Shown here in pieces: positions 1,009 through 25,131 of a stretch of DNA of 43,512 bases. Numbering within the stretch: the stretch's first letter is position 1; every line of letters begins with the position of its first letter. A program made the position numbers and the translations under genes. Origin of the DNA: a virus (lineage: Duplodnaviria > Heunggongvirae > Uroviricota > Caudoviricetes); the IMG/VR virus record IMGVR_UViG_2563366800_000009, positions 1-43,512 of that record. One strand, 5' to 3'. A model generated the notes under the pieces. The model was not told the origin of the DNA. It saw only the letters and a list, made by a program, of their open reading frames with translations, and searched no databases.

Positions 1009-1083
1009 GTCCTCTTAGTTAAATGGATATAACGAGCCCCTCCTAAGGGCTAATTGCAGGTTCGATTCCTGCAGGGGACACCA
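1009..1083 (+). tRNA. argW: tRNA-Arg (anticodon CCU); prophage integration site (attL side)
   Basis: 75-nt cloverleaf read by eye: acceptor GTCCTCT/AGGGGAC, anticodon loop CTCCTAA, T-arm GGTTCGATTCC, discriminator A plus CCA. Confidence 0.9.
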
Positions 1084-1199: not shown

Positions 1200-1244
1200 G
1201 GGTAAAAAGTGGATAAAATAATTTTACCCACCGGATTTTTACCC
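1200..1244 (+). promoter_or_regulatory. Repeat cluster directly upstream of intS: GGGTAAAAA (1200-1208) inverted relative to direct copies TTTTACCC (1222-1229) and TTTTTACCC (1236-1244); candidate recombination-protein binding sites or intS control region
   Basis: Repeats seen in sequence; last copy abuts the intS ATG. Confidence 0.4.
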
Positions 1245-2402
1245 ATGCTCACCGTTAAGCAGATTGAAGCAGCAAAGCCGAAAGAAAAACCATACCGCCT
1301 TCTCGATGGTAATGGCCTGTACCTTTATGTTCCTGTATCCGGGAAAAAGGTATGGCAGCTTCGCTACAAGATTGACGGTAAGGAGAAAATCCTGACCGTC
1401 GGAAAATATCCGCTTATGACTTTGCAGGAAGCAAGGGATAAGGCATGGACTGCGAGGAAAGACATCTCGGTTGGCATCGATCCGGTAAAGGCGAAAAAGG
1501 CTTCGTCTAACAACAATTCATTTAGTGCGATTTACAAGGAATGGTACGAGCACAAGAAGCAAGTCTGGTCAGTAGGCTATGCAACTGAACTTGCCAAAAT
1601 GTTTGATGACGACATTTTACCCATCATCGGCGGTCTTGAGATTCAGGATATTGAGCCGATGCAACTGCTGGAAGTAATCCGCAGATTTGAAGATCGCGGT
1701 GCAATGGAACGAGCCAATAAAGCCCGCAGAAGATGCGGCGAGGTTTTCCGTTACGCTATTGTCACCGGCAGGGCTAAATATAACCCGGCACCTGACCTTG
1801 CTGACGCCATGAAAGGATACCGCAAGAAGAACTTCCCGTTTCTTCCTGCCGACCAGATCCCGGCATTCAACAAAGCACTGGCAACATTTTCAGGAAGTAT
1901 CGTATCGCTCATTGCTACCAAAATTTTACGCTACACCGCCCTAAGAACGAAAGAGCTTCGTTCCATGCAATGGAAGAACGTCGATTTTGAAAACAGGATT
2001 ATCACCATCGACGCCAGTGTGATGAAGGGACGCAAAATTCATGTGGTCCCGATGTCAGACCAGGTGGTTGAACTTCTCACTACGCTAAGCTCCATCACTA
2101 AACCAGTATCAGAGTTTGTTTTTGCCGGGCGCAACGATAAGAAGAAGCCGATCTGCGAGAACGCGGTGCTGCTTGTGATCAAACAAATCGGCTATGAAGG
2201 TCTGGAAAGCGGTCACGGATTCAGGCATGAATTCAGCACGATTATGAACGAGCACGAATGGCCTGCTGACGCTATTGAAGTGCAACTGGCACATGCCAAC
2301 GGCGGATCTGTGCGTGGGATTTACAACCATGCTCAGTATCTCGATAAGCGCAGAGAAATGATGCAGTGGTGGGCGGATTATCTCGATGAGAGGGTGGCAT
2401 AG
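1245..2402 (+). CDS. intS: Tyrosine integrase IntS (P4-like family), 385 aa
   Basis: Protein begins MLTVKQIEAAKPKEKPYRLLDGNGLYLYVP, recognised as KplE1 IntS; ORF track extends it upstream to a GTG at 1209 but the ATG at 1245 gives the known 385-aa length; adjacent to tRNA. Confidence 0.9.
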   Translation: MLTVKQIEAAKPKEKPYRLLDGNGLYLYVPVSGKKVWQLRYKIDGKEKILTVGKYPLMTLQEARDKAWTARKDISVGIDPVKAKKASSNNNSFSAIYKEWYEHKKQVWSVGYATELAKMFDDDILPIIGGLEIQDIEPMQLLEVIRRFEDRGAMERANKARRRCGEVFRYAIVTGRAKYNPAPDLADAMKGYRKKNFPFLPADQIPAFNKALATFSGSIVSLIATKILRYTALRTKELRSMQWKNVDFENRIITIDASVMKGRKIHVVPMSDQVVELLTTLSSITKPVSEFVFAGRNDKKKPICENAVLLVIKQIGYEGLESGHGFRHEFSTIMNEHEWPADAIEVQLAHANGGSVRGIYNHAQYLDKRREMMQWWADYLDERVA

Positions 2403-2742: not shown

Positions 2743-4695
2743 CTAACGAAGCCATTGGCTTGGTTTTTGTTTCAGTATATGTATCGCCCCTTGACCGGAA
2801 GCTGCCTGTTGTGCAGTTGCTAGCGTCACTATGTAGGTATTCCCTACTGTTCTTGGTTGAGTAAGGTTAAACTGCAGCGGTGAAGTATCACAGGATATGT
2901 ATTCTATTCCTGAATCAGAAGTCACCTGAAATTCAGTATATAATACACTACCGGAAGAGATAGAAATGTGAATTGCTATCTCACCTCCAGTGTATACAAA
3001 AGGTATACTTGGCATATTTGAAAAATCCTTAAAGTTAAGCATTGACGATGAACTAATAACCTCTTTGCCTACGTCATTAGTAAGTTGAACCGGTTTAGTG
3101 TAATCATAAGCCAGTAGAACGTAATAGTTTACAAAATTTACAAAACTTGAAGACGCCTTTGAAGAGCTATGCCATGTTTTTTTATTGTCCACACGGTATA
3201 TGGATTGGATGTTTAGAAACTCACTTGCCGTTGCTCTTTGCAGTATACCAGTACCTATGCCAAAATGGATATTACCAACGTCAAACACGTGGTCCTCGAC
3301 ATTTCCTGTAGTTGATAATATCGCGATATCAGGCTCTGCACTATCTTCAAGCGCTTCACTGCATTTTTCAAAGTACATAGAACCAACAGACCAACTAACA
3401 GCGTTAACAGTAGCTAAACCAGCGCCTGCTGTGGTTTCAGCTATTAATGTTCCTATTCTTGATGCCAATCCTTGCCCGAGAGTGACACCGGCACCTATGA
3501 GCTGTGGGGTTAAAGATGATGAATACGGATCATACCCATAGGACAAAGATTTTGATGTGTTATACGCAGCGACGACACCAAATTCAACACCATTAACGTT
3601 TACGTCTCCGGTTTCACCGGAGAAACCATGTGCCAAAGAGACACCTCTTGCACAATCAATTCCCATATATTGATTTACTTTATGATACCAACTCCCAAGA
3701 AGTACAATTCCAACTTCTGTGGCATTATAAGCATATATAATGTCTGTGACAGATTCTGCAACTACACCAAAACCATAAAAACCGTAAGGCGCAACATTGT
3801 TAGCATCAATATTTAATGTACCAATGTGCCTAATTCCACGAACTTGTTGTTCAGGCAATGAAAGATCCGGGGATGTTCCTACTGGTTTTTTGCTGGCGCG
3901 AACTACAGCCTTTCCACCCCATGAATAGCCACTCATCGCTTTAATAGTTGCGCCGTTTGTTTCCATCACTAAATACGATGGGATAACAACTTCATCGCTA
4001 ACAAAATATGTACAACCAGGCGTTAACTCAATAAACCCTGTTTTAATTGCCATGTTAATTGCATTTAAACAATCACTTTCAGAATAAGGTTTGGCGCCGA
4101 AGTTCTCTGGGGTGTTTAAGTTAAACCCATTAAGTAGTCCAACGCATATCCAATTATCATCTGGATGGCTTCCAGCATCAACATCATAACCGCCTTCTAC
4201 TATATCTTTCCTGGCATAAAAATACATGTTTCCATCAGGATCGTTATCATAAAGAACAGCATAGCGCTCATCATCAATATGTCCACCTGATGAAAAACTA
4301 ATATCAGACTTAAAATAGAAGTTAAGTCTGAAATGATTTTTTGCCCATACAGAAAATTGATCAGGATCATACTTCAGCACATTCGGAAAATAGAACTGCT
4401 GCGCCCCATACGCATCATAAACAGCCATAGAATGGCCCTGTACAGTAACGAATTTGGCAATCTGTCCGTTATATACCGGATATCCAGCAGCGTTAATGAT
4501 GATTGGCTGCGAAACAGGAACGTGAGAGCCGTCTTCGTTCTCCACATAAACCTGAATCTGGTTTTCAGGATTTACCGGGTCAGTGTCAATTTTACCGATA
4601 TAAATTTTGCCATTGGCAACCGCTTTAAAAGAACGCGCCATAGTGAAGAGTTGCGAAGGCATTGATACGATCACATTGGCTGTAATGTCTGTCAT
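2743..4695 (-). CDS. Tailspike protein; P22-type N-terminal head-binding domain with divergent receptor-binding/enzymatic domain
   Basis: N-terminus [34 protein letters not shown]...[13 protein letters not shown] matches the conserved P22/Sf6/HK620 tailspike head-binding domain; the rest is distinct. Confidence 0.85.
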
Positions 4696-18746: not shown

Positions 18747-20246
18747 TTAAGTTCTCCGTGCGATGGGCCTGATTGGGGCTGGTATCTTTTTCTCTTTTGG
18801 TTTTTTGATGTCGCGCATCATTTTTGCGAAGCGGCGCATCATGTATGCATAGCGAACGGCTGAGAGAACGTCGTCGTTAAGCTTGACGATTTTCCCGTTT
18901 TCATCACGGTGATAGAGGCGGAACTCCTCAAAGAATGGCTCACAGGTGTTGAATACTTTGAAGCGACCATCGAGCATCATGTCGCGCAATTCAGTGATGC
19001 CAGGCTCAACAGCATTACCGCCATCAGGCCATGTCGCATGCTCCTGTAACATCATAAATCCAGCGTCTGCATACTGCCCTTTGAGCTGCTCACCGCCGCC
19101 CTTCTCATGCTGGTTTCCGTCATGAGGCCATGCGGTTGGCACTTTATGCGCCCATGATTTAACAGCCCCCCATGCCTGAACAGCTGTTTTTTCTTTCGCC
19201 TTCCACACGCGTGAAACGTAGATTGTGTCTGCGTCCTTATCCCACCAAAGCTGAACCTGAGCCTGTGGGTGATCCCATCCGAAATCCATCCCGCCAATCA
19301 CGTAGAAGTGATCAGGACACTCGAACGGCTGACACTTAATAGTCTCTTCCGGTATCTGGAAGATTCGACCACTACCCATCGTAGGAATACCGCGAGCACG
19401 CGCCTCTCTCTCATGCTCAGGATAAGATGCGATGATTTGCTCTTTCTGTTCGTCTGTGTAGTGCTCAGCGTCGTAGATGGTCATGTTGACCACTTTCTGC
19501 GACTTGCTGGGATTCTTCAGGAACTTGGTAACAACGTCAGACATCCCCATCAGCGGGGTAAACGTCAGAATTGAGAATTGACCGTATTTGTTGGTACGGG
19601 TAAGACCTTCGCCATAAATGCTGTATGGTGGCTCTTCGTCAAACCACACGCCGTGGATTGTGTCACCCTGCCAGCGAGCACGGCCTTGCGAGTATGGTTT
19701 GAAGTAGCAGATTGAAATGCCATCTTCAACGCCATCAGCCGTGTGATGCTTAACCAGAAGGTGATCAACAAGGTTCGGAAAGAAAGGAGACTTCTTCCAG
19801 CTAATGATGTCATCTTTCGGTATTGAACCGTAGCCCGGTTCATCATTCTCTTCAATACGACCGCACAGGATGCGTTGAGTCGTTTTGGTTACCGTCTCGT
19901 TTGTCTCGCCGCCAATCCAGAAGACAACAGGCTCATAGAAACGCCTACCTTTCCACTCACCGCCATATTTACCATCAGCAGGATAGCCTTTTGTGCCCGG
20001 ATAACGCCCGGTAAGGTGAAACGCGACTTCAGCAGCACCAGTAAATGACTTACCAATCTGGTTACCAGCCATAAAACAGCGCTCTGGATAGTCATGCCCG
20101 GCGTCGATGAACTCACGCTGTTTGCTGTATGGCGTAAATTCATATAGCAGGTGTGTGTTCCGGTAGTTCTCTTCTTCTTCGAGTAGCTCGAGCAATTCGA
20201 TTTGCTCTTCGTCGCTCAGGTTATCAAGAATCGCGTCCAGTTCCAC
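18747..20246 (-). CDS. Terminase large subunit (P22 gp2-like)
   Basis: 499 aa; overlaps small terminase end; ATPase/nuclease-type sequence. Confidence 0.85.
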
Positions 20247-20712
20247 GGTTGAATAGCTCCTTGATACGAGAGCGTCGCTTATCGCGATCTCCCTTATCAG
20301 GTGTCACGTCTTCAACTTGCGACTGCTCTTTGAGGCCCAAATCACGGGCGATGATATTAGCGTTGAGAAGGTCAGCAGCTGCGCCGGAGAATTTCTGGTC
20401 GTAGATGACTTTCTCTGCTCGCGTGGTGACCCCACAAAAATCTTCGTCAGCGCGAAATCTTCGCCATGTTTCATCGGCTATATCGAGGAACAGGCATAGG
20501 CCGGTGAGCGTCATTGCACGCATCTTGGCGATAGGCTCTTGCGTCACTTCACCCTGATACGAGAATGCTTTCATTTCCCACAGTGGATGCTCTTCCACCC
20601 ATGTGAAATATTCGCAGCATGCTTCCCACAGCACCTCAGGCGATTCGAATTTCGGGTTGCGCCCGTGACTGCTGCGGGCCTCCCAAAATCGGTTGCCCTT
20701 TGGTGCTGCCAT
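20224..20712 (-). CDS. Terminase small subunit (P22 gp3-like)
   Basis: 162 aa beginning [26 protein letters not shown], matching P22 gp3. Confidence 0.85.
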
Positions 20713-20717
20713 ATTGA

Positions 20718-20807
20718 TTATTTCCCTTCTGTTTGCTTATCCCACTCTTCGCGGAATTTGGATGGGTTGTCGAAGCCCTGAGAGCATGAACAAACTTTGA
20801 TTACCAT
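20718..20807 (-). CDS. Very small ORF (29 aa) upstream of small terminase
   Basis: ATG at 20807; below ORF-track cutoff; weak. Confidence 0.25.
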
Positions 20808-21001
20808 TACTTAGCTCCTTCCTGCTTGCCTGTGTTTGATGTCGTTTCAGCAGCAGCCCCAGAGCAATTAACGCTACCCGCAACACCATATCCATAACCA
20901 GTCTTGAAGAAATTGTTGCCAGTAAATTGGTTAACAATCTTCCCGCAGCACGGGCAGCGTTGGCATTGGCAATAAGGGGATTGATTATTCCAGTGATACA
21001 T
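20807..21001 (-). CDS. Hypothetical Cys-rich small protein (64 aa)
   Basis: ATG at 21001 preceded by AGGAG RBS; CQCQRCPCC motif. Confidence 0.45.
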   Translation of the reverse strand: MYHWNNQSPYCQCQRCPCCGKIVNQFTGNNFFKTGYGYGVAGSVNCSGAAAETTSNTGKQEGAK

Positions 21002-21374
21002 CTTGTTTCTCCTGAATGAATGGCAGGAAGTGATTAACCATCCTGTCCAGCATGTAACAGTACGTCTCGTTGGCATCTTCAGGCCTTGTCGTCACGCCGA
21101 CATCAGAGCAAACGTAAAAGCAGACGTGGGCGCACTCATGAACGAGCGTAGCGATCTGCTGATCGAATACTCCAATCAGATAGCATCTCTCACCCGTATC
21201 AGTGTTTTCATAGTTGCTTGCAAGCCCAAGATTGAATGGCTTCTCATCCCCGCTGCCGCCAAGGAATTTATCAGCGTGCTGAAACTGTTCTCTGGTTGTT
21301 GCGAGGTAGACGTGTGCACTTTGAAACAGCGGAATGGTGAACGCCGGGAGTTTGTGCCATTTGGCCTTAGCCAT
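20985..21374 (-). CDS. Hypothetical protein with HExxH motif (LVHECAHV); possible small zinc metallopeptidase
   Basis: 129-aa ORF; HExxH seen in translation. Confidence 0.5.
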   Translation of the reverse strand: MAKAKWHKLPAFTIPLFQSAHVYLATTREQFQHADKFLGGSGDEKPFNLGLASNYENTDTGERCYLIGVFDQQIATLVHECAHVCFYVCSDVGVTTRPEDANETYCYMLDRMVNHFLPFIQEKQDVSLE

Positions 21375-21375
21375 A

Positions 21376-21618
21376 TCACACTCCAGCGGTGAACAGGTCT
21401 AACGCTTCCTTCGATTTACGCACCGCTTCGATAGTACGGGTCGTGATATCTGAATTAGCGCCGCCTGACTGGAAGTGAATTTTGAATAGCTCAAGCTTCA
21501 GTTCGTCAGTGCCAATGAACTGAAATGCTTCTTCTGCTGCTGCGTTCTGGTTCATGACCAGTTTGTAAATCTCTAACTGGAATTTCTGTTCTTCAGTCAT
21601 GGGAATAATCTCTGCCAT
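21376..21618 (-). CDS. Hypothetical 80-aa protein
   Basis: ORF with GGAG RBS; adjacent to HExxH gene. Confidence 0.5.
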   Translation of the reverse strand: MAEIIPMTEEQKFQLEIYKLVMNQNAAAEEAFQFIGTDELKLELFKIHFQSGGANSDITTRTIEAVRKSKEALDLFTAGV

Positions 21619-21874
21619 TGTTGGCTCCGTTTATCCGTTAAAAGGGATATCAATTAAGTTATCCCGTATAGGGTATAAGCCATTGTCGAGACCACTCATT
21701 GAATGGCCTCTGCAATAACCGATGTCTTTCCATCAGTCCGCCACCACAAAGAATCTTTTTTGCCATAAGGCTGGAGGTTCATCTTTCAGTGGCTGCCAGT
21801 GTTATTTCCCCACTTTCTGGCTTGGGTTGTTTCGCGGTGCTGCCGTAATGCAAAAACTGGATTAACCTGCGAAA

Positions 21875-22405
21875 TCACACCATCCCGGGCAAATACATTT
21901 GCACTTCATTTGCCGCTCTCTCGCGTGCAACATGAAGCAATCTTTTTCGCCCACCAACGCCCCACTTAGCCATTTGGCTTGCGCACTGGCTTATCGCTTT
22001 GGTTTCAGTATTGATGATGTGATCGATTCTATTCAGACGGGACATTGCGCCAACGCCGAGACGGACAACCGTTTTGAAAACTTCATAAACTTCGATTTCA
22101 AATTCCGGCTTAATCCATGCTGCATATCTGATTGCCAGAAGTTCAACACCCCACACACCTGGTTCTGCACCACCTTTGATTATTTTAAGTGGTTGAATTT
22201 GTTCCAAAGTGCTTTTTTGCACTTTGGCCTCCAGTGCTTTTATGAAGCGTTTTATCTGCGCGCTACGCAAAAACTGGCTTGGGCGCTGTTGCTCTGTAGC
22301 CTCTCCATTTGCAACTGCTGCTGCATGGAGATCGTTTAAGTTGTAGCGTCCATCCTCATCAACACGAACGGACACACCATTGACAATAACTGTTGGGTAC
22401 TTCAT
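21875..22405 (-). CDS. KilA-N domain protein
   Basis: N-terminal region with YNLNDLH-type KilA-N signature; 176 aa. Confidence 0.6.
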   Translation of the reverse strand: MKYPTVIVNGVSVRVDEDGRYNLNDLHAAAVANGEATEQQRPSQFLRSAQIKRFIKALEAKVQKSTLEQIQPLKIIKGGAEPGVWGVELLAIRYAAWIKPEFEIEVYEVFKTVVRLGVGAMSRLNRIDHIINTETKAISQCASQMAKWGVGGRKRLLHVARERAANEVQMYLPGMV

Positions 22406-22549
22406 CAGTGATTACCTTTTAGTGATGAACCTTGTCACACAGGATTCCGGCCCACAGAAAGGCACCGATCACCAAACCGGCATCCTCAAGGGTCATCCTG
22501 AAAGGTTCTGTGTTCAGAAGTCGCGCGTGTGAAGCGCGTTTGTTGCAGA

Positions 22550-22577
22550 TATAAAAAAGCCCCGCGAATGCGAGGCT
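22550..22577 (-). terminator. Putative rho-independent terminator downstream of Rz
   Basis: Imperfect GC hairpin followed by TTTTTTAT on the minus strand. Confidence 0.4.
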
Positions 22578-22750
22578 AAACCCTGGTATTTGTAATGACT
22601 GGCTCTTATCTCAACGCAGCCCCTTACCGCGCGCCAGATGCTCAATATCAAGCATCAGCAATGAGATGTTTAATCTGGATTCACTCCAGAAGTGATCACC
22701 ACCCTGTCTACAGAGCCAGATGTGAAGGATGATGAGTAAAATTATCGCTA

Positions 22751-23188
22751 TCATCGAAGGCATTGCGTCCTGATGTATTCCTGCAAGTAGTTAACCTGCG
22801 CGGTTATCCTGTCGATTCCGCTTCGTAGACGGTAATAATTGAGTTCAGCATCTGCTGTAAGTCTTGGGCTTTCTCCATCGCCCATGCTGCTGGCTCCGGT
22901 CGTTGACTTTGCACAGGTGGCGGCGACTTGCAGGCGCTTACGACCAGCAGAAACATCAGCACGGAGACTTTCGATAGTCGCATTAGCATCAGCAAGCTCC
23001 TTTGTGTATCTGGCGTCAAGTTCTGCTACATCACGTTGACGCTTCTGCATGTCAGCGATTGTGGATGCGGCCTTATCGCGCTGCTCTTTGTAGGTCATGG
23101 CGTTATCACGGTAATGATTAACCGCCCATGACAGGCAGACGATGATGCAGATAACCAGAGCGGAGATAATCGCGGTGACTCTGCTCAT
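22751..23188 (-). CDS. Rz: Rz i-spanin
   Basis: N-terminal TM helix then coiled coil; directly downstream of endolysin. Confidence 0.85.
22804..22989 (-). CDS. Rz1: Rz1 o-spanin lipoprotein embedded in Rz in the +1 frame
   Basis: Lipobox-like LLVVSAC followed by Pro-rich segment, nested in Rz. Confidence 0.6.
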
Positions 23189-23661
23189 ACCTCAATCTCT
23201 CTGACCGTTCCGCCTGCTTCTTTGAATTTTGCAATCAGGTTGTCAGCCTTATGCTCGAACTGACCATAACCAGCGCCCGGCAGTGAAGCCCAGATATTGC
23301 TGCAACGGTCGATAGCCTGACGAATATCACCGCGATCAATCATCGGTAAAGCGCCACGCTCCTTAATCTGCTGCAGTGCAACAGCGTCCTGGCTTTTTGG
23401 AGAGAAGTCTTTCAGGCCAAGCTGCTTACGATAGGCATCCCACCAACGTGAAAGAAGTTGGTAACGTCCTGCGGCTGTTGATTTGAGTTTGGGGTTTAGC
23501 GTGACAAGTTTGCGAGGGTGATCGGAGTAATCAGTGAATAGCTCTCCGCCAACAATGACGTCATAACCATGATTTCTGGTTTTCTGACGTCCGTTATCTG
23601 TTCCCTCTGACCATGCCAGCATATCGAGGAACGCCTTACGTTGATTATTGATTTCCACCAT
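23185..23661 (-). CDS. R: Endolysin, lambda R-type lytic transglycosylase
   Basis: [39 protein letters not shown]... essentially the lambda R sequence. Confidence 0.9.
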
Positions 23662-23968
23662 CTTCTACTCCGGCTTTTTTAGCAGCGAAGCGTTTGATAA
23701 GCGAACCAATCGAGTCAGTACCGATGTAGCCGATAAACACGCTCGTGATATAAGCGAGATTGCTACTTAGTCCGGCGAAGTCGAGAAGGTCACGAATGAA
23801 CCAGGCGATAATGGCGCACATCGTTGCGTCGATTACTGTTTTTGTAAACGCACCGCCATTATACCTGCCGCGAAGGTACGCCATTGCAAACGCAAGGATT
23901 GCCCCGATGCCTTGTTCCTTTGCCGCGAGAATGGCGGCTAACAGGTCATGTTTTTCTGGCATCTTCAT
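23645..23968 (-). CDS. S: Holin, lambda S-type
   Basis: [39 protein letters not shown]... essentially lambda S, with dual-start motif. Confidence 0.9.
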
Positions 23969-24210
23969 GTCTTACCCCCAATAAGGGGATTTGCTCTATT
24001 TAATTAGGAATAAGGTCGATTACTGATAGAACAAATCCAGGCTACTGTGTTTAGTAATCAGATTTGTTCGTGACCGATATGCACGGGCAAAACGGCAGGA
24101 GGTTGTTAGCGCAACCTCATGCCACCCGCTTTCACGAAGGTCATGTGTAGAAGGCCGCAGCGTAACTATCACTGATGAATTCAGGATAGCCAGTGGCTAC
24201 GGCTCAGTTA

Positions 24211-24286
24211 TGGTGCTGGTTAACGGACTTGAACCGCTACCCATTCGCTTACAAGGCGACTGCTCTACCATTGGAGCTAAACCAGC
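24211..24286 (-). tRNA. Phage-encoded tRNA-Thr-like gene (anticodon UGU)
   Basis: Cloverleaf read by eye: acceptor GCTGGTT/AACCAGC, D-arm GCTC-CAATGGTA-GAGC, anticodon loop CTTGTAA, T-loop TTCAAGT, discriminator A, CCA; one anticodon-stem mismatch. Confidence 0.6.
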
Positions 24287-24291
24287 ATGTT

Positions 24292-24366
24292 TGGCGGGAC
24301 AGCGTGGACTCGAACCACGATAAGAAGGTTAACAGCCTTCCGTAATGACCTTTATACGACTGACCC
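24292..24366 (-). tRNA. Phage-encoded tRNA-Asn-like gene (anticodon GUU), possibly degenerate
   Basis: Anticodon arm GAAGG-CTGTTAA-CCTTC, T-arm CGTGG-TTCGAGT-CCACG, 3' GCCA; acceptor stem has a T-T mismatch and the D-stem is only 3 bp. Confidence 0.4.
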
Positions 24367-24457
24367 AAATAAAAAAAGCCACCGTTGCAACTTAAGAGTC
24401 ACTAACGGCAGCTTATGCGAATAGTGTTGCTCATTTGCTCAATGATGTCAACACGTT

Positions 24458-24946
24458 CTATGCTACATGTTTAATTTTCTCTACACGTTTCCGGTTTTTA
24501 AACGCACTATCCAGAACTGGGTAAATCATAAACAACGAAGCATTGAGGATTTCGTCAACTTCCCGGCGACAGGTTGCGAGCGATGGTTTTTGAATACGCC
24601 CGCCGCCCCGGCATAACATCTTGCGAGGTCTTGCGACACGATGATAGTAAGATGCAATGGCATGCTTGGAAGATCCATGAGCGTAGTAGCTGAGGAGGAT
24701 GCCAAAGGCTTTCTTGTCAATGCACATGACGGAATCGACGACCTGAGAAATCAACATTCCATCATCATCATTACACATTGGCCTTGTCATAACTCTTCCC
24801 GGCTCTACGCTCTCCATGAACTTCGCTATTACGCTGCTCATGCGCTTTTCCAGACGACCTGAATAAACCCATGCGCCCCACAGTTCAAGCCAGCCATTCA
24901 GCCAATCGTGCTGTTCTTTGGTGAGGTTTATTTCTCTTATGCTCAT
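24458..24946 (-). CDS. Q: Late-gene antiterminator Q
   Basis: WGAW and C-x-DDD motifs resembling Q proteins of the phage 21/933W type; lies between nin region and lysis genes. Confidence 0.7.
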   Translation of the reverse strand: MSIREINLTKEQHDWLNGWLELWGAWVYSGRLEKRMSSVIAKFMESVEPGRVMTRPMCNDDDGMLISQVVDSVMCIDKKAFGILLSYYAHGSSKHAIASYYHRVARPRKMLCRGGGRIQKPSLATCRREVDEILNASLFMIYPVLDSAFKNRKRVEKIKHVA

Positions 24947-25131
24947 CGTCTTCCCCTCTTGCCCTGTTTGACCATCAGGACGCCGTTAACTATTACGTGA
25001 CGCTCGCCTTTGCTGTCTCGGTTGTACTTGAGCACTGTTCCTCTTGCGCAGGAAAGCATCCTTGCCACTTCGGTCTGATTGCCTCGTGTCTGGATAAGAA
25101 GCTCTGGTATCGTTTGAATTGTGGCGTTCAT
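24943..25131 (-). CDS. Hypothetical small protein (62 aa) between rusA and Q
   Basis: ORF overlapping Q start and rusA end. Confidence 0.4.
   Translation of the reverse strand: MNATIQTIPELLIQTRGNQTEVARMLSCARGTVLKYNRDSKGERHVIVNGVLMVKQGKRGRR

Follow-up and report, generated by a model that had tools for sequence, protein, structure and literature searches.

Introduction

The boundary between the lysis and packaging genes of P22-like phages is best described in P22 itself, where the genes rha-orf25-pid-orf80-orf59c lie between gene 15/Rz1 and gene 3. The pid site in P22 is a true moron locus, and related phages carry either no insert or a different one there (PMC3573128; PMC8835761). Moreover, P22 reportedly needs neither orf25 nor orf80 to grow lytically or as a lysogen (bioRxiv 10.1101/2023.08.15.553423), and an orf25-orf80 deletion gives viable phage (PMC11016777). 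A second arrangement is found in ST64T, ST104, SE1, L, and epsilon34, in which a gene for a KilA-N or a GIY-YIG protein is followed by DUF2560, Orf129, Dec, and gp3. Hence, a variable, dispensable insertion point is already known from the P22 literature. Here, we analyze a cluster of small genes at the corresponding position (20718-22405, minus strand) of a P22-like prophage in IMG/VR record IMGVR_UViG_2563366800_000009 (Caudoviricetes; positions 1 to 43,512); the window refers to this entire stretch of 43,512 nucleotides (nt).

Results

Three slots for exchangeable genes between Rz and gp3

Our preferred interpretation is that the interval is a cargo region within the late operon of a P22-like (Lederbergvirus-type) prophage and the positional homologue of P22 rha-orf25-pid-orf80-orf59c. 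Specifically, three exchange slots are split by conserved linkers, with a KilA-N gene in slot A, an empty slot B (the pid site), a DUF2560 gene serving as an anchor, and a zincin-like gene followed by two micro-open reading frames (ORFs) in slot C. We estimate the probability of this explanation as a whole, i.e. a variable late-operon cargo region of a P22-like prophage that is probably expressed late, at roughly 75%. The features on which it is built are as follows, in the direction of transcription and with protein lengths in amino acids (aa):

22558-22577, minus strand: intrinsic terminator downstream of Rz and a 50-aa ORF; 8-bp stem (6 GC), 4-nt loop, TTTTTTAT
21875-22405, minus strand: 176-aa KilA-N protein, slot A cargo; Pfam KilA-N (PF04383), E 7e-18
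21660-21846, minus strand: conserved linker after slot A; 93% identical to P22 40180-40368
21659-21766, minus strand: 35-aa ORF matching the N-terminus of ST64T Orf118
21631-21699, minus strand: ORF with an orf25-like remnant, the first 9 codons of the P22 orf25 homologue
21633-21659: slot B, empty in the window; 27 bp versus the 631-bp pid moron in P22 (BLAST breakpoints)
21376-21618, minus strand: 80-aa DUF2560 protein; Pfam DUF2560 (PF10834), E 1e-43
20985-21374, minus strand: 129-aa HExxH protein, slot C gene 1; phrog_1365, E 2e-37
20807-21001, minus strand: 64-aa Cys-rich microprotein, slot C gene 2; 6 Cys, AGGAG 7 nt before the ATG
20718-20807, minus strand: 29-aa micro-ORF, slot C gene 3; AAGGAG ribosome-binding site (RBS)

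An initial annotation, made from the letters and an ORF list, had named a KilA-N protein, an 80-aa ORF, an HExxH protein, a Cys-rich 64-aa ORF with a strong RBS, and an Rz-proximal terminator. All five are present where it had placed them, as judged from Pfam, PHROG, motif, and RBS evidence.

The window and P22 have in common the flanks, the linkers (93% identity), orf80, and the start of orf25. By contrast, the KilA-N protein replaces Rha, pid is missing, and the 129-aa, 64-aa, and 29-aa ORFs in slot C replace orf59c; homology to P22 resumes at 20718, directly before gp3 (BLAST). With the ST64T-type phages, the window shares the order KilA-N, DUF2560, Orf129; the KilA-N gene has ~94% DNA identity to ST104 orf45 and to the SE1 gene, and the Orf129 family is common to both. 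However, the Orf129 allele in the window shows only 59% protein identity, and Dec is replaced by the 64-aa and 29-aa ORFs.

The initial annotation had proposed that this junction be compared across P22-like phages for cargo variability. We made this comparison using 80 IMG/VR loci anchored on gp3, 66 of which also contain Rz. The cargo is highly variable: in these 66 loci, the gap between Rz and gp3 spans 283-4723 bp (median 1860) and has 32 distinct architectures, including one cargo-free locus, documenting presence or absence of cargo at a fixed site among relatives. Of the genes found here, DUF2560 is the most consistently present (73 of the 80 gp3-anchored loci), followed by Dec (49), KilA-N and the 129-aa gene (23 each), Rha (16), orf59c (12), the 29-aa ORF (9), and the 64-aa ORF (1). 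The combination found in the window is rare. No deposited phage covers at least 80% of 20600-22900, and only one of 5426 E. coli genomes does so, with an extra Gp49 gene in slot B. Together with the viable deletion in P22, these data agree with the view of the initial annotation that this is a site for variable and dispensable cargo.

Probable late expression by read-through

The hairpin of the intrinsic terminator (22577-22558) is also present in the predicted RNA fold, and the 96%-identical epsilon34 sequence carries a Rho-independent terminator annotation at the matching site. This is the sole convincing minus-strand terminator and it lies upstream of the cluster; between 22405 and gp3 there is none. 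Using a scan that picks up near-consensus sigma-70 sites only, we found no sigma-70-like promoter beyond chance (4 sites versus 5.9 expected) and none upstream of the KilA-N and DUF2560 ORFs. Moreover, the four ORFs for the DUF2560, 129-aa, 64-aa, and 29-aa proteins are start/stop-coupled into gp3, with junctions of +1 nt between DUF2560 and the 129-aa gene, -17 between the 129-aa and 64-aa genes, -1 between the 64-aa and 29-aa ORFs (the 29-aa ATG overlaps the 64-aa stop in TAATG), and +5 between the 29-aa stop and gp3. In lambdoid late transcription, the Q-modified polymerase passes intrinsic terminators. Because the cluster has no detectable promoter, is oriented like the late operon, and is coupled into gp3, we infer that it is probably transcribed late in lytic growth by a Q-modified polymerase that passes the terminator.

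Late-only expression, if correct, implies that these are not prophage-expressed conversion genes. Nevertheless, we considered that the cluster could consist of morons expressed from the prophage that provide the lysogen with superinfection exclusion or abortive infection. KilA-N domains are known from proteins with toxic or regulatory effects upon expression, the terminator would shield the cluster from upstream transcription, and pid makes the site a proven moron site in P22 (PMC3573128). However, none of the five cluster proteins had a PADLOC match at E ≤0.1, and the hint at abortive infection in the initial annotation thus found no support. In addition, the lack of a promoter beyond chance and of a downstream terminator, the late-operon orientation, and the translational coupling to gp3 all argue against this reading, as does a composition shift that is only mild: the GC content dips to 0.45-0.50 versus 0.49-0.53 in the flanks. 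We therefore consider lysogenic morons to be quite unlikely. Separately, we rejected the idea of an island marked by its composition, since base composition shows no clear island. As for the moron-type insertion point proposed initially, the part that concerns the site stands, in that it is variable and includes the P22 pid moron, and the part that concerns the genes is not supported, in that those in the window lack a detected promoter and a terminator of their own and are coupled to gp3.

Another GC-rich hairpin, which has a weak T-tract, is present at 22522-22538 (plus strand), 20 nt from the minus-strand terminator; these two hairpins on opposite strands could together form a bidirectional stop.

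The KilA-N protein in slot A

Slot A lies just after the Rz-proximal terminator, and P22 has Rha in the same position. The KilA-N domain spans aa 9-113 (22067-22381) and scores 64.8 bits relative to a gathering cut-off of 23.8. The entire protein matches phrog_129 ('transcriptional regulator', E 1.6e-60), its 60-aa C-terminal module matches phrog_10441, and copies at 92-100% identity are found in ST104/SE1-type phages and in viral contigs. A search against PDB sequences gave nothing significant.

The initial annotation had noted that KilA-N domains occur in antirepressors. In favor of this idea, the KilA-N protein occupies the P22 Rha slot; on the other hand, its C-terminal 60 aa resemble the ORF11CD3 module of Rha only weakly. 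Specifically, the KilA-N protein and P22 Rha showed no similarity when compared directly by BLASTP, and its C-terminus has no Pfam match to ORF11CD3. The P22 Rha C-terminus weakly matches the PHROG of the KilA-N protein C-terminus (E 7.7e-4), and hhalign of the two C-termini gave E 9e-4 but a probability of only 23%. KilA-N+ORF11CD3 hybrids do occur in relatives. By analogy and position, the KilA-N protein is most likely a positional analogue of Rha and a DNA-binding regulator.

The alternatives found in slot A of relatives are Rha+ORF11CD3, a KilA-N+ORF11CD3 hybrid, a T5orf172/GIY-YIG protein, a Tad2-like protein, or nothing. The Tad2-like protein (Thoeris anti-defence 2; Pfam E 1.7e-24) is encoded by phage Huey, a close relative (PQ850609.1, locus L088, 997-1497), the record of which labels both this protein and a Gp49/Sf6-gp66 family gene in slot B 'anti-CRISPR'.

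The alleles in relatives raise the possibility that the region is an island for anti-defence or inter-phage conflict, the products of which, made late or carried over, neutralize host immunity or competing prophages. In that case, the 129-aa protein would be an effector with protease activity, and the KilA-N protein would induce or silence other elements in the manner of an antirepressor. In addition to the Tad2-like protein of Huey, the Rha ('anti-repressor' PHROGs) and T5orf172 alleles of slot A are consistent with such a role, and stand-alone zincin metallopeptidases (MPTases) belong to the conflict-associated PolyVal/SprT-like group (PMC5512222). However, no match to known anti-defence families was found for any protein in the window, late expression would be odd timing against early-acting defences unless the product is packaged, and the argument is one of association. 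We regard a dedicated conflict island as possible but tentative. In the preferred explanation of a late-operon cargo region, the cluster as dispensable cargo would probably tune lytic growth or counter host or competitor systems, as the Tad2-like gene does in relatives.

Slot B and the DUF2560 anchor

The match between the linker after slot A and P22 runs from after rha to 40 nt inside orf25 (BLAST), and in P22 this is followed by the pid moron, the coordinates of which are those given in PMC3573128 and which is oriented oppositely. On the other side of the empty slot B, 21632-21371 of the window is 93.5% identical at the DNA level to the P22 orf80 segment. The DUF2560 protein encoded here is the orthologue of P22 Orf80 (97% identical at the protein level) and its Pfam match reaches 147.7 bits relative to a gathering threshold of 25.

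Both E. coli LSC52 and phage Huey carry an inserted Gp49/Sf6-gp66 gene near slot B, with the breakpoint at ~21720. In ST64T, Orf118 (L006, 2869-3225) consists of the DUF2560 protein plus a 38-aa N-terminal extension; in the window, this extension is a separate 35-aa ORF, which has no obvious RBS and lies 40 nt upstream of DUF2560. This ORF is probably the remnant of a fusion or a split.

A predicted mini-metallopeptidase in slot C

The first gene in slot C encodes a member of the ST64T Orf-129/epsilon34 gp70 family. The protein has a HECAH motif (21126-21140) and an invariant E103 (21066-21068), and H79, E80, H83, and E103 are invariant across 32 homologues with 40-97% identity. An AlphaFold2 (AF2) model with a pLDDT (predicted local distance difference test) of 84 has the order strand-strand-helix-strand-strand-helix-helix, in which the last two helices (residues 74-91 and 103-128) contain the HExxH motif and E103, respectively. 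The zincin MPTase core of phage polyvalent proteins consists of an N-terminal helix, a small beta sheet, an HExxH helix, and a Glu helix (PMC5512222), and the order of elements in our model agrees with this published core. Using Foldseek against the predicted viral structures in BFVD, we obtained 31 matches at E ≤0.001 in very diverse phages (best E 3e-11), a few of which are named SprT-like, PolyVal, IrrE, or metalloprotease. No Pfam match was found, and there was no significant match to PDB entries, solved structures, or characterized zincins. From the model and the conserved residues, it is a well-motivated prediction that the 129-aa protein is a minimal zincin-like metallopeptidase. As a predicted Zn metallopeptidase, it would most likely act late in infection by cleaving a protein of the host or of the phage.

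The gene after Orf129 in ST64T, L, and epsilon34 encodes the head-decoration protein Dec, an alternative content of slot C. Based on this neighborhood, slot C could have an accessory role in morphogenesis, with the mini-zincin and the microproteins processing or decorating virion components. It also fits such a role that, elsewhere in lambdoid phages, the 129-aa gene heads the structural module, directly before unrelated small terminase genes. However, no structural-protein similarity was found, and the role is not required given that the 129-aa gene is missing in P22 and in 57 of the 80 gp3-anchored relatives and the Cys-rich ORF in 79 of 80. We consider a morphogenetic function unlikely, and the reading of slot C as exchangeable cargo is preferred.

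The 129-aa gene was observed directly upstream of the small terminase gene in loci L020, L026, and L036 (~3986-4372 in each), which are from lambdoid phages whose terminases are quite different and unrelated. The next gene in L036 encodes a second protein of the HExxH type, which has 212 aa and a HELYH motif. Finally, an obligate pair of DUF2560 and the 129-aa gene was rejected because either gene can occur alone: the 129-aa gene is missing in 51 loci with DUF2560, and DUF2560 is missing in 26 loci with the 129-aa gene.

Two conserved micro-ORFs upstream of gp3

The 64-aa protein has the invariant motif [FY]C-x-CQRCPCCGK (20939-20971) and a Gly/Ala/Ser-rich C-terminal tail. Relatives at 91%, 64%, and 35% identity retain the frame and the motif, with a frame-preserving 6-nt indel, and the ratio of nonsynonymous to synonymous differences (pN/pS) against relatives is 0.18-0.53. 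Because frame and motif are kept and pN/pS is in this range, we conclude that the 64-aa ORF is a real gene under purifying selection. The family is rare. It formed 6 clusters in a search of 5.8 billion protein sequences, its motif is present in 15 of 2.9 million IMG/VR viral contigs and in one GTDB species genome, and the gene is found in 20 of 5426 complete E. coli genomes. By tblastn, none of the deposited phages encodes it. A hidden Markov model (HMM) of the family, searched against 1.84 billion representatives, recovered one family member and low-complexity matches to giant proteins but no credible outside relative. There was no Pfam, PHROG, NCBIfam, or PADLOC match, and the AF2 model (pLDDT 40) was uninformative. 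The product is a 'hypothetical protein' in one GenBank E. coli record and is absent from the RefSeq and phage records examined; in E. coli LSC52, RefSeq leaves the ORF unannotated.

In locus L175 (IMGVR_UViG_3300047552_000377, 1835-2059), a 74-aa Cys-rich ORF has the identical YCQCQRCPCCGK motif together with extra CxxC and CxCxC pairs. The phage is unrelated, and the ORF is part of its replication module, where a 777-aa primase/helicase-like ORF lies downstream. Because the identical motif occurs in this module, the Cys knuckle may be a small mobile Zn-binding unit.

The micro-ORF of 29 aa is likewise conserved. In divergent phages, its length is 22-31 aa, and every version has an ATG of its own and contains the core GF[DN]NP[SN]KFR[DE]EWD. 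In this core, synonymous (pS) is well above nonsynonymous (pN) divergence, e.g. pS 0.90 versus pN 0.17 against locus L098, and the ORF is under purifying selection. It has no Pfam or NCBIfam match and is annotated in none of the records examined. In five loci (L103, L122, L129, L109, and L085), a variant (MSAEGFNNPSKFRDEWDSSVKSK) is located upstream of DUF2560 rather than beside gp3 and, because of this placement, we suggest that the micro-ORF moves between slots.

An HExxH protein next to a Cys-rich peptide is also reminiscent of a modifying enzyme and its precursor, as in ribosomally synthesized and post-translationally modified peptides (RiPPs). The two ORFs are adjacent and overlap, the HExxH region weakly matches TIGR04267 (alpha-ketoglutarate-HExxH peptide hydroxylase; E 0.002), and the Cys-rich ORF clusters with a 129-aa homologue wherever the context is readable, with the related 74-aa ORF of L175 as the lone exception. 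However, the TIGR04267 match has only 18 bits relative to a cut-off of 40 and extends over 30 residues, and the predicted fold of the 129-aa protein is zincin-like. Moreover, a Cys-rich partner is missing for the majority of 129-aa genes (66 of 80 loci anchored on the 129-aa gene; 22 of 23 gp3-anchored loci), such that pairing with the 64-aa ORF is not obligatory; the two genes lie apart in L047; and there is no leader/core organization, export gene, or immunity gene. A RiPP-like pair is very improbable and we rejected it; the sub-threshold TIGR04267 match was the only Pfam or NCBIfam match among the 129-aa, 64-aa, and 29-aa ORFs.

We also considered slot C as one previously unrecognized functional module, made late in infection and composed of the zincin, a CxCxxCxCC zinc-knuckle microprotein, and a peptide of 22-31 aa. 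Here, the microproteins would be cofactors, substrates, or inhibitors, and the targets of the module would be either a protein of host defence or of a competitor, which it would cleave, or a virion component, which it would process. This proposal is speculative and we think it doubtful.

Flanking genes and other features of the window

The cluster and its neighbors form a single co-directional run on the minus strand in the order Q antiterminator, two tRNAs, holin, lysozyme, Rz/Rz1, cluster, gp3, large terminase subunit (TerL), and portal. By their Pfam and PHROG matches, Rz, gp3, TerL, and portal place the cluster within a P22-like late operon. The flanking features are:

24458-24946, minus strand: Q-type antiterminator, upstream in the transcription unit of the cluster; Pfam Phage_antitermQ, E 1.1e-24
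22751-23188, minus strand: Rz i-spanin, the upstream cargo boundary; Pfam Phage_lysis, E 5.7e-37, and phrog_13, E 1e-72
22804-23019: Rz1, embedded in Rz
22611-22763, minus strand: 50-aa ORF of the epsilon34 gp67/Sf6 gp65 family; phrog_11822, E 3.9e-38
20224-20712, minus strand: small terminase gp3, the downstream boundary; Pfam GP3_package, E 9e-30, and phrog_606, E 2e-69
18747-20246, minus strand: TerL (Pfam); 23-nt overlap with gp3

The 50-aa ORF, which like the 29-aa ORF and the orf25-like remnant was not on the list of the initial annotation, has a hydrophobic N-terminus and overlaps the 3' end of Rz; it is annotated in E. coli E62 and epsilon34 and is found in 10 of the 80 gp3-anchored loci. 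The late-operon leader between the Q gene and holin contains a tRNA-Thr(TGT) and a tRNA-Asn(GTT) (24211-24286 and 24292-24366, both minus strand), and these were the only matches in an Rfam scan of 20000-25000. At the prophage end, a tRNA-Arg(CCT) (1009-1083, plus strand) adjoins a 397-aa ORF (1209-2402, plus strand), which are probably the integration site and the integrase, respectively. Lastly, two antisense ORFs mirror the 129-aa and KilA-N genes (21003-21392, plus strand, 129 aa; 21899-22339, plus strand, 146 aa). The former is retained in L003. We take both as shadow ORFs and not as genes.

Discussion

The lysis/packaging boundary of P22-like phages emerges from this comparison as an exchange hot spot with three sites and sharp breakpoints. 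In relatives, these slots hold a Tad2-like anti-defence gene, the host-manipulation gene pid, and Dec. Knowing the slot boundaries provides a practical place in which to seek accessory and counter-defence genes and a safe site for engineered cargo. Our observations leave the current understanding of P22-like phages unchanged. The new findings are modest: a set of cargo genes not reported together before, a Cys-knuckle microprotein that is rare, a micro-ORF that is conserved, and structural grounds for regarding Orf129 as a mini-metallopeptidase. The 129-aa family is thereby flagged as a widespread and testable predicted phage mini-metallopeptidase, and the conserved 64-aa and 29-aa micro-ORFs directly upstream of the terminase genes illustrate that annotation misses small genes at this boundary.

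Three points weigh against our interpretation of the region as late-expressed cargo that would act in lytic growth or against other systems. There is no phage in which DUF2560, Orf129, or the KilA-N protein has a demonstrated function; association with Tad2 counts as weak evidence; and a weak or alternative promoter may be present, the P22 pid promoter being described as weak.

Classical morons (Juhala/Hendrix; Cumby et al. 2012) are exemplified by P22 pid and by lambda bor and lom. The cluster in the window differs from these in that no promoter of its own was detected, it has no terminator of its own, its orientation is that of the late operon, and it is coupled to gp3. It resembles them in that cargo at a fixed site varies among relatives and is dispensable.

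A similar comparison can be made for the predicted metallopeptidase. In contrast to the MPTases of polyvalent proteins, the 129-aa protein is a stand-alone protein rather than a domain of a giant polyprotein and has no Pfam SprT-like or peptidase match, and, unlike for polyvalent MPTases and SprT, its similarity to solved zincins is below significance. What it shares with SprT-like proteins and with the zincin MPTase domains of polyvalent proteins from phages and plasmids (Iyer et al. 2017, PMC5512222) is an HExxH helix followed by a helix with an invariant Glu and, as with the MPTases of polyvalent proteins, its zincin-like fold is widespread in phages.

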